From a virus (Duplodnaviria > Heunggongvirae > Uroviricota > Caudoviricetes), in IMG/VR virus record IMGVR_UViG_649989947_000010, positions 1-47,812 of that record: 47,812 nt of DNA. One strand, written 5' to 3'. The translations under genes were made by a program, and so were the position numbers. Shown here piece after piece: positions 8,531-11,443 of the stretch (its first letter is position 1; every line of letters begins with the position of its first letter). Below the pieces are notes generated by a model. That model was given only the letters and a program-made list of their open reading frames with translations, was not told where the DNA came from and ran no database searches.

Positions 8531-9428
8531 GCACTGGAAAAACATTACTATTTATAAACTTTCTCGTGAGGCGGATCTGACCGACTTAGAAGATAAAAAG
8601 AAAATGATCCTTTTCACGCCATGCGGTAGTCAGGATATGGCCAAGTTCGGTTTTGTATCTCCATTTGGTGATAATTCCGAAGTTATCGCTATGCATGGAA
8701 ATGGTTTTATCCTTGTTGAAGCAAAGCGCGAAACAAAAATTCTTCCCCCGCCGGTTATCCAGCGAGCTATTCAAGAAAAAATTGAAAAACTTGAGCAAGA
8801 ACAAGCGCGTAAACTGAAGAAAACAGAGAAGGACTCCCTGAAAGACGAAGTTCTGCATTCTCTTCTGCCACGGGCTTTTTCAAAGTTTTCTGTTATCCAG
8901 GCGATCTACGACGGTTCAACTAAACGTATCTATATCAATGCCAGCGCGCGGCAGGCAGAGGATATGCTCGCGCTTATGCGTAAGTCTCTGGGTTCTCTTC
9001 CTGTTGTTCCCCTGAGTGTTGAAAATCCCATTGAATTAACGCTGACCGACTGGGTACGTGATGGTAGTGCTCCACAGGGATTTCAAATGGGGGATGCGGC
9101 AGAACTTAAGGCAGTGCTTGAGGATGGCGGTATTGCCCGAGTGAAAAAGCAGGATTTGGGAAGCGATGAAATTTCCACACACCTGGAAGCTGGCAAGCTC
9201 GTTACTAAGTTGGCACTCGACTGGCAGAACCGCATTAAATTTACACTGGACCATAACTTCAGCCTTACCAGCGTCAAATTTGCGGATGAATTGCTTGAGC
9301 AGAACTCTGATATTGATAGTGAAGATGTTGCGCAGCGACTGGACGCAGATTTCTTCCTGTTGACCAGTGAAATTTCGTGCCTGGTTGATGCTCTGGTAAA
9401 TGCCCTTGGTGGAGAGGCTAAGCAGTGA
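8523..9428 (+). CDS. hrdC: RdgC-family recombination-associated protein
   Basis: Strong similarity to recalled E. coli RdgC ([11 protein letters not shown]..., [24 protein letters not shown]..., GSLPVVPLS); start chosen at MFKHW. Confidence 0.8.
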
Positions 9429-11443
9429 AAGAGCTGTGCTATGGATCTGTTTGCAGTGGAATTGAAGCCGCGAGTATTGCCTGGGAACCGTTGGGTATGC
9501 GTCCGGCGTGGTTTGCTGAAATCGAGCCTTTTCCATCTGCCGTTCTTGCGCACCGCTGGCCCCATGTCGCCAACCTTGGCGACATGACAAAACTTGCCAA
9601 AAAAGTCCTGGCTGGGGAAATCGAATCCCCTGATGTGCTCGTCGGGGGTACGCCTTGTCAGGCATTCAGTATCGCGGGCTTACGTGGTGGGCTTGATGAT
9701 GAACGCGGCGCGCTAACTTTGAAGTATGTGGAGCTTGCAAATGCAATTGACGACAAACGGTCTGAGTCCTTCCTCAAACCGACAGTTATCGTCTGGGAAA
9801 ATGTCCCAGGAGTCCTGTCATCGGCAGATAACGCCTTCGGATGTTTCCTTGCCGGATTGGCTGGAGAAGATGCGCCATTTGAACCAGGTGATCGACCTGA
9901 ATCAGGAAAAAGTAACGCGTTCTGGCGGTGGGATGGCAAAACCGGTTGCCATGCTCCAAAGTGGCCGCAGTGTGGTTGTATTTATGGATCGCAGCGAAAG
10001 GTGGCCTGGAGAATCCTTGATGCCCAATACTTCGGAGTGGCACAACGACGCCGACGCGTGTTTGTTGTCGCAAGTGCTCGAACAGACCTCGATCCCGCAA
10101 CGGTACTTTTTGAGTTCGAAGGCGTGCGCCGGAATATTGCGCCGAGCAGAGGCGAGGGGAAGGAAACTACCAGATATACTTCAAACATCGCTATCAGATC
10201 TTGCGATGATACAAACATAGTTGCCATGGCACATGGGCAAGGAGGGGCTGAGATAAAAACCGATAATTCGGCACCAACTTTGACATGTAACCATGAAGCA
10301 CCAATTGTATTGCTCGTCGACGGTAGAATGCGCCGTCTTATCCCTGTCGAATGTGAAAGGCTGCAAGGTTTTCCTGATGGACATACATTGATCCCTACGG
10401 AAAAGCGTAAAAAAGTTTCTTCAGATGAACTGGCATACCTTCGCAAAAACTATCCTGATTTGAGCGAAGAAGAGGCCGCGATGCTTGCAGCTGACGGACC
10501 GCGTTACAAAGCGATCGGCAATAGTATGGCGATACCAGTAATGCGCTGGATTGGCGATCGGATTGCCAAGGCTGCATGTCGGCAGAAGGAAGGGAGTGAA
10601 ACAAAAGAGCGAAAAGTTAAACCAGCGGCAGAATTCGAACGGTCCATATTCAAATGGGCTGGTGGAAAATTTGGTGTTCTGGAACAAATCTTTCGCTATT
10701 TGCCAGAAGGGAAGCGCCTGATTGAGCCTTTCGTTGGTGGCGGAGCTGTCTTCATGAATGCCGGATACCAGGAAAATCTGCTAAATGATGTGAATGCTGA
10801 CCTGATTAACTTTTACAAGACTCTGCAACGCGAGGCGCATTCACTTATCACTCTGGCACATCGTTTCTTCCAGGACTACAACACGCAGGAAGGATACCTG
10901 GCAGTACGGAATGCGTTTAACAAACAAGTCTATGATGATTTACATCGCGCAGCGGCGTTTTTGTTCCTGAACCGACATTGTTTTAACGGATTGACGCGTT
11001 ACAACCAAGCCGGTGAGTTCAATGTCGGTTATGGGAAGTATAAAACTCCGTATTTCCCATTGCAGGAGATGGAAGCCTTCCTTGGTGCGGAAGGGCGTTC
11101 TGAGTTTGTATGTGGTGATTTTGCTGCGGTGATTGAAGCTGCCGGAGAAGGAGATGTCATCTTTTGCGATCCGCCGTATGAACCGCTCCCAAATACAGAG
11201 GGATTCACGAACTATTCCGGTCATGACTTTAAGTTTGAAGAGCAAAAACGCCTGGCGTCTCTGTTGACGGATGCTCATCGCCGAGGTGCAAAGGTTCTCA
11301 TTACTAACAGTGGCGCGCCAAACATCAGAGAACTTTATCAGGACAGTGGCTTCAGAGTGGAACCTCTTTTTGCCAGACGTTCTGTGTCTTGTAAGGGGGA
11401 CACTCGAGGTGTTGCTCATGACGTTATAGCAATATTGCTCTAA
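9425..11443 (+). CDS. dmt: Fused DNA methyltransferase: N-terminal C5-cytosine MTase, C-terminal Dam-like N6-adenine MTase
   Basis: C5 motifs [12 protein letters not shown] and WENVPGV; C-terminal FKWAGGK and DPPY; GTG start overlaps hrdC stop. Confidence 0.85.

Follow-up and report, generated by a model that had tools for sequence, protein, structure and literature searches.

The window, i.e., the whole 47,812-nucleotide stretch of phage DNA that was analyzed, carries a uhr-hrdC-dmt operon flanked by two C1 repressor operators:

8158–8174, + strand: C1 repressor operator (P1 Odmt/Op68) at the operon promoter, with one mismatch to the consensus, matching the annotated P1/P7 operator position
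8246–8530, + strand: uhr (upf64.0), with which the operon begins; its coordinates were carried over from P1 and P7, and a gene is called at this position
8523–9428, + strand: hrdC, RdgC-family gene (PF04381, E = 8.5e-98; P1/P7 annotation), whose stop overlaps the dmt start
9425–11443, + strand: dmt (dam), 672 aa, with a GTG start and a stop codon at 11441–11443 (ORF list)
11434–11461, no strand assigned: Oban (Op72ab), a divalent C1 operator (consensus matches at 11434–11450 on the + strand and 11445–11461 on the − strand; P1/P7 annotation), overlapping the dmt stop codon

The dmt ORF is uninterrupted over 9425–11443 (+ strand). A ribosome-binding site with GGAG lies 7–13 nt 5′ of the GTG start, and this start shares 4 nt with the end of hrdC, the RdgC-family gene preceding it. 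The order C1 operator, uhr, hrdC, dmt, Oban, tRNA-Asn, and tRNA-Thr is the same as in P1 and P7. Consensus sites for the C1 operator were found 11 times in the window, compared with 0.19 expected. Because such an operator is located at the uhr-hrdC-dmt promoter, Dmt would be expected once the prophage is induced or a cell is infected, and not while the lysogen is quiescent, and a methylome of a lysogen may therefore miss the enzyme and give a false negative.

Over its full length, the Dmt protein shares 96% identity with P7 Dam (AAQ07538, AF503408 68963–70981) and 91% with P1 Dmt (AAQ14041, AF234172 66412–68676). At the DNA level, the gene is 96.8–97.3% identical to those of P7 and P1-like phages, and 18 phage records match it with 95–99% identity. 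The exact 672-aa protein is present in several independent E. coli assemblies, and a single cluster at 98% identity holds 991 member sequences. P7 Dam has the same length, single-cassette region, operon, and flanking C1 operators, but differs by twenty-odd substitutions, with I306 of the window in place of T (motif IX) and G319 in place of W. P1 Dmt is alike in gene, position, regulation, and Dam half, and its C5 core (nt 1–720) is 99.7–100% identical; yet it is 754 aa long, with a 171-aa recognition region containing cassettes D-H-I, whereas the window allele has 89 aa with cassette A. Since the first 240 aa of the window Dmt are nearer to P1 than to P7, the gene is a P1/P7 mosaic. Judged by these comparisons, the ORF is the already described P7-type dmt (dam) allele of a P1/P7-type E. 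coli plasmid prophage, and the fusion is ordinary in this phage group. The gene has been part of the P1 and P7 annotations for over 20 years, which the initial annotation did not recognize, and its rediscovery by itself changes nothing. The GenBank annotation of both orthologues reads bifunctional DNA methyltransferase, acting on N6 of adenine in GATC and “perhaps” on C5 of cytosine, in agreement with the added cytosine specificity of unknown target proposed in the initial annotation. The finding also directs attention to the target of the cytosine half of Dmt and to the purpose of its methylation.

The C5-cytosine methyltransferase half comprises the following elements:

9425–10579, + strand: C5-cytosine methyltransferase half, aa 1–385 (PF00145, TIGR00675)
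9452–9466, + strand: motif I variant CSGIE, aa 10–14
9653–9661, + strand: motif IV PCQ, aa 77–79, with the catalytic Cys78
9797–9805, + strand: motif VI ENV, aa 125–127
10043–10057, + strand: motif VIII QRRRR, aa 207 onward
10331–10375, + strand: motif IX, aa 303 onward
10517–10525, + strand: motif X GNS, aa 365 onward

This half matches PF00145 with E = 2.4e-35 (123 bits against a Pfam threshold of 22) and TIGR00675 with 112.9 bits against an NCBIfam cut-off of 100.65. Residues C78, E125-N126-V127, Q207, R209, R211, and G365-N366-S367 do not vary among 54 homologues of 60–98% identity. Motif I deviates from the classical FxGxG in that Glu replaces the second Gly (C-S-G-I-E), and S11-G12-I13-E14 is nearly invariant in the family. 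In an AF2 model (pTM 0.73), pLDDT is >85 for most of the catalytic core (10-residue block means), with lower values at about aa 71–100, and the small domain is poorly modelled. A Foldseek search with this model gave M.HhaI as the best match (E = 8e-13), with M.HaeIII and DNMT3 also among the top matches, which supports the catalytic fold only. The monospecific M.HhaI (PDB 1mht/10mh) resembles the window enzyme in all ten-motif landmarks, in the similar length of its recognition region, and in a GQG...A-x-TL geometry. However, sequence identity is only 16–18% and the recognition loops differ; hence, the GCGC target of M.HhaI is not transferable to the window Dmt. No homologue of known cytosine specificity was identified among those compared, and so no target is proposed for the C5 half.

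Target specificity is set between motifs VIII and IX, a region that is organized as follows in the window:

10064–10330, + strand: variable (target-recognition) region, aa 214–302, 89 aa, between motifs VIII and IX
about 10145–10329, + strand: segment replaced relative to laboratory P1 (DNA comparison)
10226–10309, + strand: cassette A, aa 268–295, the presumed single target-recognition module (recurrence; M.HhaI loop alignment)

The protein difference between the window allele and laboratory P1 Dmt is confined to the region between these two motifs. Along the gene, DNA identity to P1 is 99.7–100% for nt 1–720, absent from 721 to about 900, and 88–98% beyond; the comparison with P1 thus has a sharply defined recombination boundary. 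Among 100 relatives, the variable region ranges from 88 to 344 aa and is composed of about 18 recurring cassettes of 25–45 aa in varying combinations and order, with up to seven or more in tandem between motifs VIII and IX. The window allele is the minimal form: it has one cassette, and multispecificity would call for at least two tandem modules. Cassette A occurs nearly unchanged in 39 distinct sequence contexts. Its G271-Q272-G273 and A283-x-T285-L286 align with G236-Q237-G238 and A248-x-T250-L251 of M.HhaI, the Q-to-T spacing being 13 in both, and it is presumed to be the single target-recognition module. The AF2 model has pLDDT <50 over aa 233–292, so the structure is uninformative on the target. 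A PDB sequence search with cassette A alone returned only a spurious glycoside-hydrolase repeat, and when motif IX was included, only motif IX aligned to M.HhaI. In profile-profile comparisons of cassettes A, E, and K, whose profiles are short, only the PTL core aligns (P = 5e-4 to 7e-3, hhalign probability 6–33%), which is suggestive of equivalent recognition modules. Both dmt alleles are common in nature: among 5,426 complete E. coli genomes, the P7/window-type allele was found in 195 and the P1-type in 243, almost all on plasmids.

The remainder of the protein consists of a linker and the Dam-type half:

10580–10636, + strand: charged linker between the halves, aa 386–404 (no Pfam coverage; pLDDT <50 for aa 388–400)
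10637–11440, + strand: Dam-family N6-adenine methyltransferase half, aa 405–672 (PF02086, TIGR00571)
10652–10669, + strand: KWAGGK, aa 410–415
10730–10744, + strand: FVGGG (Dam motif I), aa 436 onward
11168–11179, + strand: DPPY, aa 582–585

The Dam half is recognized by PF02086 (E = 1.2e-57, 196 bits, Pfam threshold 22) and TIGR00571 (253.9 bits, NCBIfam cut-off 114.85), and its motifs follow the order FxGxG, then DPPY. The domain search called for by the initial annotation thus found both halves above the Pfam and NCBIfam thresholds, and the reading of a C5-cytosine methyltransferase (N-terminal) and a Dam-like N6-adenine methyltransferase (C-terminal) in one polypeptide holds, with PCQ, ENV, KWAGGK, and DPPY all lying in the single 672-aa frame, at a level well outside what chance would give. 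We take the GATC-contacting residues of E. coli Dam to be K9, N120, L122, R124, P134, and Y138, as in the published EcoDam-DNA structure. In the alignment, five of these six are kept (K410, N521, L523, R525, and Y539), and G535 stands in place of P134. E. coli Dam structures (PDB 2g1p, 4gbe, and others) match aa 405–670 with E = 1e-58, spanning the whole Dam sequence, and E. coli Dam and T4 Dam share the fold and motif order; unlike E. coli Dam, Dmt is fused to a C5 module. The score for the host Dam equivalog NF008152 (248.6 bits) does not reach the cut-off of 441, and by this measure the Dam half is a phage paralogue rather than an orthologue of chromosomal E. coli Dam. Dmt comprises two methyltransferase modules, each complete and folding independently, with a disordered charged linker (about 20 aa) between them. 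Both modules are under purifying selection, with dN/dS values of 0.16–0.27 for the C5 half and 0.08–0.11 for the Dam half.

GATC occurs 179 times in the whole window, where 185 are expected; there is no overall enrichment, but two clusters stand out:

about 5849–5908, no strand assigned: oriR GATC repeats (Dam-type methylation substrate), adjoining the DnaA box
43743–43934, no strand assigned: pac site with eight TGATCR hexamers (Dam-type methylation substrate; motif count)

Six GATC sites are located in 5813–5905, adjoining the TGTGGATAA DnaA box and the iterons of oriR. This origin is that of the plasmid prophage and works during lysogeny. The GATC-rich origin repeats and pac hexamers described in the initial annotation are both present, but its claim that the phage encodes the enzyme licensing its own replication and packaging fared unevenly. 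The packaging part is established biology: according to the review PMC12707154, which cites Sternberg & Coulby 1990, pac must be methylated at GATC in P1, and dmt becomes essential in Dam- hosts. The replication part is weaker, given that oriR is active in lysogeny and the dmt operon has a C1 operator.

Taken together, we consider it highly probable that the locus is a P7-type dmt in a C1-repressed operon, with a Dam module serving GATC and pac, and an active m5C module whose one target is set by a cassette swappable by recombination, likely for pre-methylation against restriction. As the third gene of the operon, dmt would be expressed after induction or infection. According to the literature on the P1 orthologue, the Dam-type module would methylate GATC, and the pac hexamers so methylated could be cleaved by the packaging enzyme even if host Dam is absent or limiting. 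The N-terminal module, with its catalytic motifs intact, is probably an active m5C methyltransferase, and the single cassette at aa 268–295 may set one cytosine target. The resulting m5C would likely protect phage DNA in advance from cytosine-sensitive restriction enzymes of the next host; we infer this anti-restriction role for the C5 half by analogy. Swapping of the recognition region as a cassette by recombination would then give differing cytosine specificities among P1-like phages.

It is rather unlikely that only the Dam half matters and that the C5 half is vestigial, be it a catalytically silent passenger or a DNA-binding appendage. In the literature searched, which covered only part of the older work, no experiment on the m5C activity or target of any Dmt/Dam of the P1/P7 group was found; dN/dS is greater in the C5 half than in the Dam half; and a CRISPRi screen in P1 found both dmt parts non-essential (PMC10695390). 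Truncated and split dmt alleles also occur, including one of 473 aa truncated in the linker region (P0029). The laboratory P1 record also shows G74W adjacent to the catalytic Cys, a position that is Gly in 113 of 113 homologues, and laboratory P1 is fully viable. Yet the window allele keeps all catalytic motifs with their invariant residues, dN/dS of the C5 half is well under 1, and ongoing cassette shuffling of the recognition region is hard to square with a dead C5 domain.

Alternatively, the C5 half may be active but regulatory, marking phage or host DNA to time expression, replication, or packaging, with no anti-restriction function. Just such a signalling role, at pac, is played by the Dam half (PMC12707154), and in the same review many orphan phage methyltransferases are regarded as regulators of the viral cycle. 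We nevertheless give this explanation a small chance, because the two common alleles have unrelated recognition regions on otherwise near-identical phage backbones, which is more in keeping with an arms race against varied restriction systems than with a fixed regulatory site. Short of a systematic search, no conserved cytosine-containing repeat was linked to the C5 half. Finally, an assembly or frameshift artefact fusing two neighbouring genes has virtually no chance and was rejected: although two separate genes are annotated in some records (ON470615; PMC10695390, as dmt-A and dmt-B), the frame is likewise unbroken in the curated genomes of P7 and P1 and in many independent records, including the assemblies with the identical protein and the 991-member cluster.

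The reading of an active C5 module with a swappable recognition cassette may extend beyond dmt, albeit with slightly less than even confidence. The C5 half would belong to an enterobacterial phage family of cassette-shuffling cytosine methyltransferases, in which 25–45-aa cassettes with a GQ...(P/H)TL core are gained, lost, or exchanged by recombination. In this case, dmt would be a balanced polymorphism between the one-cassette P7/window form and the three-cassette P1 form, each in ~4% of complete E. coli genomes and conferring its own anti-restriction spectrum. The C5 allele of laboratory P1 may be dead (G74W), and this would account for the fact that no cytosine activity was ever noted. In the literature searched, which covered only part of the older work, enterobacterial phages were nowhere described as having multi-cassette C5 enzymes. 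If true, the cassette family would be the Gram-negative counterpart of the multispecific C5 enzymes of Bacillus phages (SPR, phi3T, rho11s, and H2). Tandem shuffled cassettes are seen in the latter and in relatives of the window C5 half, a likeness of layout; in contrast to the Bacillus phage enzymes, the window allele has one cassette, the hosts are Enterobacteriaceae, and multi-target activity is putative. Resistance genes are widely carried by P1-like phage-plasmids in Enterobacteriaceae, and a swappable cytosine-methylation cassette would help decide which restricting hosts these phage-plasmids can enter. A cassette-to-target catalogue would also serve methyltransferase engineering.

One further element lies within the C5 half, in a segment where the window is identical to P7:

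10413–10431, + strand: sequence matching the late promoter LPdam2 of P7 dam, as predicted in the P7 annotation

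The window contains a single open reading frame of 672 codons at 9425–11443 on the plus strand. It has a GTG start, a ribosome-binding site containing GGAG 7–13 nt 5′ of the GTG, and a 4-nt overlap between this GTG and the TGA of the preceding gene, a member of the RdgC family (PF04381, E = 8.5e-98). The initial annotation described one polypeptide fusing a C5-cytosine methyltransferase to a Dam-like N6-adenine methyltransferase, with PCQ and ENV in the N-terminal half and KWAGGK and DPPY in the C-terminal half. Indeed, these four motifs were all found in one frame, together with others:

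aa 10, CSGIE, C5 half
aa 77, PCQ
aa 125, ENV
aa 207, QRRRR, C5 half
aa 303, motif IX, a 15-residue stretch
aa 365, GNS, C5 half
aa 410, KWAGGK
aa 436, FVGGG, Dam half
aa 582, DPPY

The domain search that had been proposed as a check identified, in Pfam, a C5 cytosine methylase in the N-terminal part (PF00145, E = 2.4e-35) and a D12-class N6-adenine methylase at aa 411–644 (PF02086, E = 1.2e-57), and both halves scored above the curated NCBIfam cut-offs (TIGR00675 and TIGR00571). Against solved structures, aa 405–670 matched E. coli Dam (E = 1e-58) and aa 51–131 matched M.HhaI and M.HaeIII. The single frame holding all motifs and the Pfam, NCBIfam and structure matches thus confirm the fusion.

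Over its full length, the DNA of this gene, dmt, is 96.8–97.3% identical to P7 dam and the dmt genes of several P1-like phages. At the protein level, identity is 96% to P7 Dam (AAQ07538, 672 aa as well) and 91% to P1 Dmt (AAQ14041, 754 aa). The window corresponds to contig ADUL01000037.1 of a draft E. coli assembly, and an identical protein is present in several other E. coli assemblies. The gene order around dmt matches that of P1/P7:

8158–8174, C1 repressor operator (P1 Odmt/Op68), ahead of uhr
8246–8530, uhr, in the P1/P7 order
8523–9428, hrdC, in the P1/P7 order and followed by dmt
11434–11461, Oban, a divalent operator overlapping the dmt stop
12119–12194, tRNA-Asn, downstream of dmt
12197–12272, tRNA-Thr, downstream of dmt

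The testable defining features of the C5 family, the Dam family and the P1/P7 dmt orthologue group were found, with motif I reading CSGIE in place of the classical FxGxG and five of the six GATC-contact residues of E. coli Dam conserved. The ORF is a known gene at a known location, and its bifunctionality has long been annotated: GenBank describes P1 Dmt as an enzyme that 'methylates DNA at N6 adenine in GATC sequences and perhaps at C5 cytosine' and P7 Dam as a 'hypothetical bifunctional DNA methyltransferase'. The initial annotation was essentially correct about a gene long annotated in P1 and P7. Assignment as a chromosomal Dam orthologue was ruled out by the equivalog model NF008152, which gave a score of 248.6 against a cut-off of 441.

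The C5 half is likely, although not assuredly, an active m5C enzyme; this prediction is based on its invariant catalytic motifs, its dN/dS constraint, and a confident M.HhaI-like catalytic model. Across 54 aligned family members (60–98% identity), Cys78 in G-G-T-P-C-Q, E125-N126-V127, Q207/R209/R211, and G365-N366-S367 are invariant, and even motif I, despite its unusual S-G-I-E sequence, hardly varies. Pairwise dN/dS values among the window, P7, and P1 are 0.16–0.27 for the C5 half and 0.08–0.11 for the Dam half, indicating constraint on both halves that is somewhat looser for the C5 half. In the AlphaFold2 model of aa 1–405 (pTM 0.73), the catalytic domain is predicted with confidence, and the structures most similar to the model are M.HhaI (E = 8e-13), M.HaeIII, and DNMT3. 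Two points count against activity. No report of m5C made by a P1/P7-type Dmt was found in the literature searched, and in a P1 CRISPRi screen in a Dam+ host, dmt scored as non-essential (PMC10695390).

Codon 74 of dmt, four residues N-terminal to the catalytic Cys, is TGG (Trp) in the lab P1 genome (AF234172, L002:2720–2722) and GGG (Gly) in the window (9644–9646) and P7, giving VLVWGTPCQ and VLVGGTPCQ, respectively. G-G-T-P-C-Q occurs in 113/113 homologues with a recognisable PCQ motif. Since all of these carry Gly, the C5 half may be inactivated in the classical P1 strain, perhaps, speculatively, through selection by passage on McrBC+ K-12.

Relative to P1 Dmt, the differences in the window and P7 proteins are confined to the stretch between motifs VIII and IX. 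At the DNA level, gene nt 1–720 are 99.7–100% identical to P1, nt 721 to about 900 show no similarity, and the remainder is 88–98% identical. The recognition region has been cleanly replaced as a cassette, which makes the window dmt a mosaic of a P1-like core and a P7-like recognition region. Among 100 proteins with both flanking motifs, taken from the best 120 homologues returned, the region between these motifs spans 88 to 344 aa and, by reading, consists of about 18 recurring cassettes of 25–45 aa, varying in number and order, each adding ~40 aa. The window and P7 carry cassette A, P1 carries D-H-I, and Enterobacter and other prophage proteins carry B-F-A-G, B-F-A-G-K-E, and up to B-F-A-H-G-K-N. 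The gene finding being already known, the remaining novelty is this cassette architecture of the wider C5 family, of which no description was found in the literature searched, whose coverage was limited.

In the window Dmt, cassette A forms the following part of the recognition region:

aa 268–295, cassette A, 28 residues

It is nearly unchanged in 39 different sequence contexts. With motif IX anchored to M.HhaI by phmmer (M.HhaI sequence 233–291 confirmed), G271-Q272-G273 and A283-x-T285-L286 of cassette A lie opposite G236-Q237-G238 and A248-x-T250-L251 of M.HhaI, and the Q-to-T distance is 13 residues in both. In the M.HhaI–DNA structure, these two loops make base-specific contacts. As the recognition region (89 aa) is about the size of that in monospecific enzymes, the window allele is best read as monospecific; it lacks the tandem recognition modules that define multispecific enzymes. 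In profile–profile comparisons of cassettes, only the PTL core aligned, with a non-significant hhalign probability, and the AlphaFold2 model has low confidence in the recognition region.

GATC is not enriched in the window overall (179 occurrences versus 185 expected). Two local clusters bear out the GATC-rich origin repeats and GATC-containing pac hexamers of the initial annotation:

5813–5905, six GATC, of which five fall in GGATCT/CGATCC repeats inside 60 bp, adjoining the TGTGGATAA DnaA box and upstream iterons
43743–43934, eight TGATCA/TGATCG hexamers in two groups

The layouts match the oriR and pac arrangements, respectively. Reportedly, oriR depends on adenine methylation (titles of Abeles & Austin 1987 and Abeles et al. 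1993). The further claim that the enzyme licenses its own signals holds for pac as established biology (PMC12707154): P1 packaging needs Dam methylation at pac (PMC12707154, citing Sternberg & Coulby 1990), so dmt is essential in Dam- hosts. The oriR part needs qualification. Because oriR is the prophage-plasmid origin and a C1 operator abuts the -35 box of the dmt operon promoter, placing the operon under C1 control, host Dam is, judging from annotation, the more likely methylase in the lysogen.

Once C1 no longer represses it, the uhr-hrdC-dmt operon would be transcribed, and translation of dmt is probably coupled to that of hrdC. The Dam module, whose function is reported for P1 and whose substrate sites are present in the window, would methylate GATC on replicating phage DNA, thereby keeping the pac hexamers methylated, as cleavage needs, without reliance on host Dam. 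The C5 module may methylate one cytosine-containing sequence set by cassette A, and, by analogy with other phage-borne methyltransferases, packaged DNA might reach the next host pre-protected from the matching restriction enzyme.

Both recognition alleles are common, and about equally so. A search of 5,426 complete E. coli genomes gave the window/P7-type segment in 195 of them (coverage of 80% or more) and the P1-type in 243, almost always on a plasmid; the plasmids among the best matches listed measure about 92–103 kb.

The linker between the halves (aa 386–404) is charged and predicted to be disordered, and the two modules appear mechanically independent. Natural alleles include truncated, internally deleted, or split forms (homologues P0029, P0026, and P0052), so that the fusion is not obligatory and the gene is decaying in some lineages; P0029 (473 aa, 123 member sequences) ends within the linker and P0026 is without motif IX. 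Related C5 proteins have no partner or are fused C-terminally to an unrelated Dam family, PF05869 (phage Dam; P0054, P0110, P0113, P0115, P0116, and P0120, from other prophages), which suggests more than one independent origin for fusions of C5 with N6-adenine modules. Some alleles (proteins P0030, P0034, and P0080; phage records RCS47, vB_EcoM-Ro157c2YLVW, and OP279344) are interrupted by a ~1-kb insert that encodes an intein (Pfam Hint_2 and LAGLIDADG_3), placed at GGTP|C...VVHN|CQAFS, so that the catalytic Cys is also the +1 extein residue for splicing.

Across the window, the 17-bp C1 operator consensus has eleven matches with up to 3 mismatches (0.19 expected by chance), at 8158, 11434, 11445, 21867, 27979, 28028, 30120, 42924, 47197, 47661, and 47744, which map the prophage immunity regulon within the window. 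Downstream of the tRNAs, at about 13418–14245, the window carries a gene with a Band_7/SPFH domain, roughly at the location of P1 plp, upl, and tciA. ARAGORN called a tRNA-Met (anticodon CAT) at 14273–14348, downstream of the dmt-tRNA cluster, which is probably P1 trnI (tRNA-Ile2, anticodon CAT). Over 11444–36000 (24.6 kb), coverage by the best phage record is only 76%, so the element has some accessory regions in which it departs from sequenced P1-like phages.
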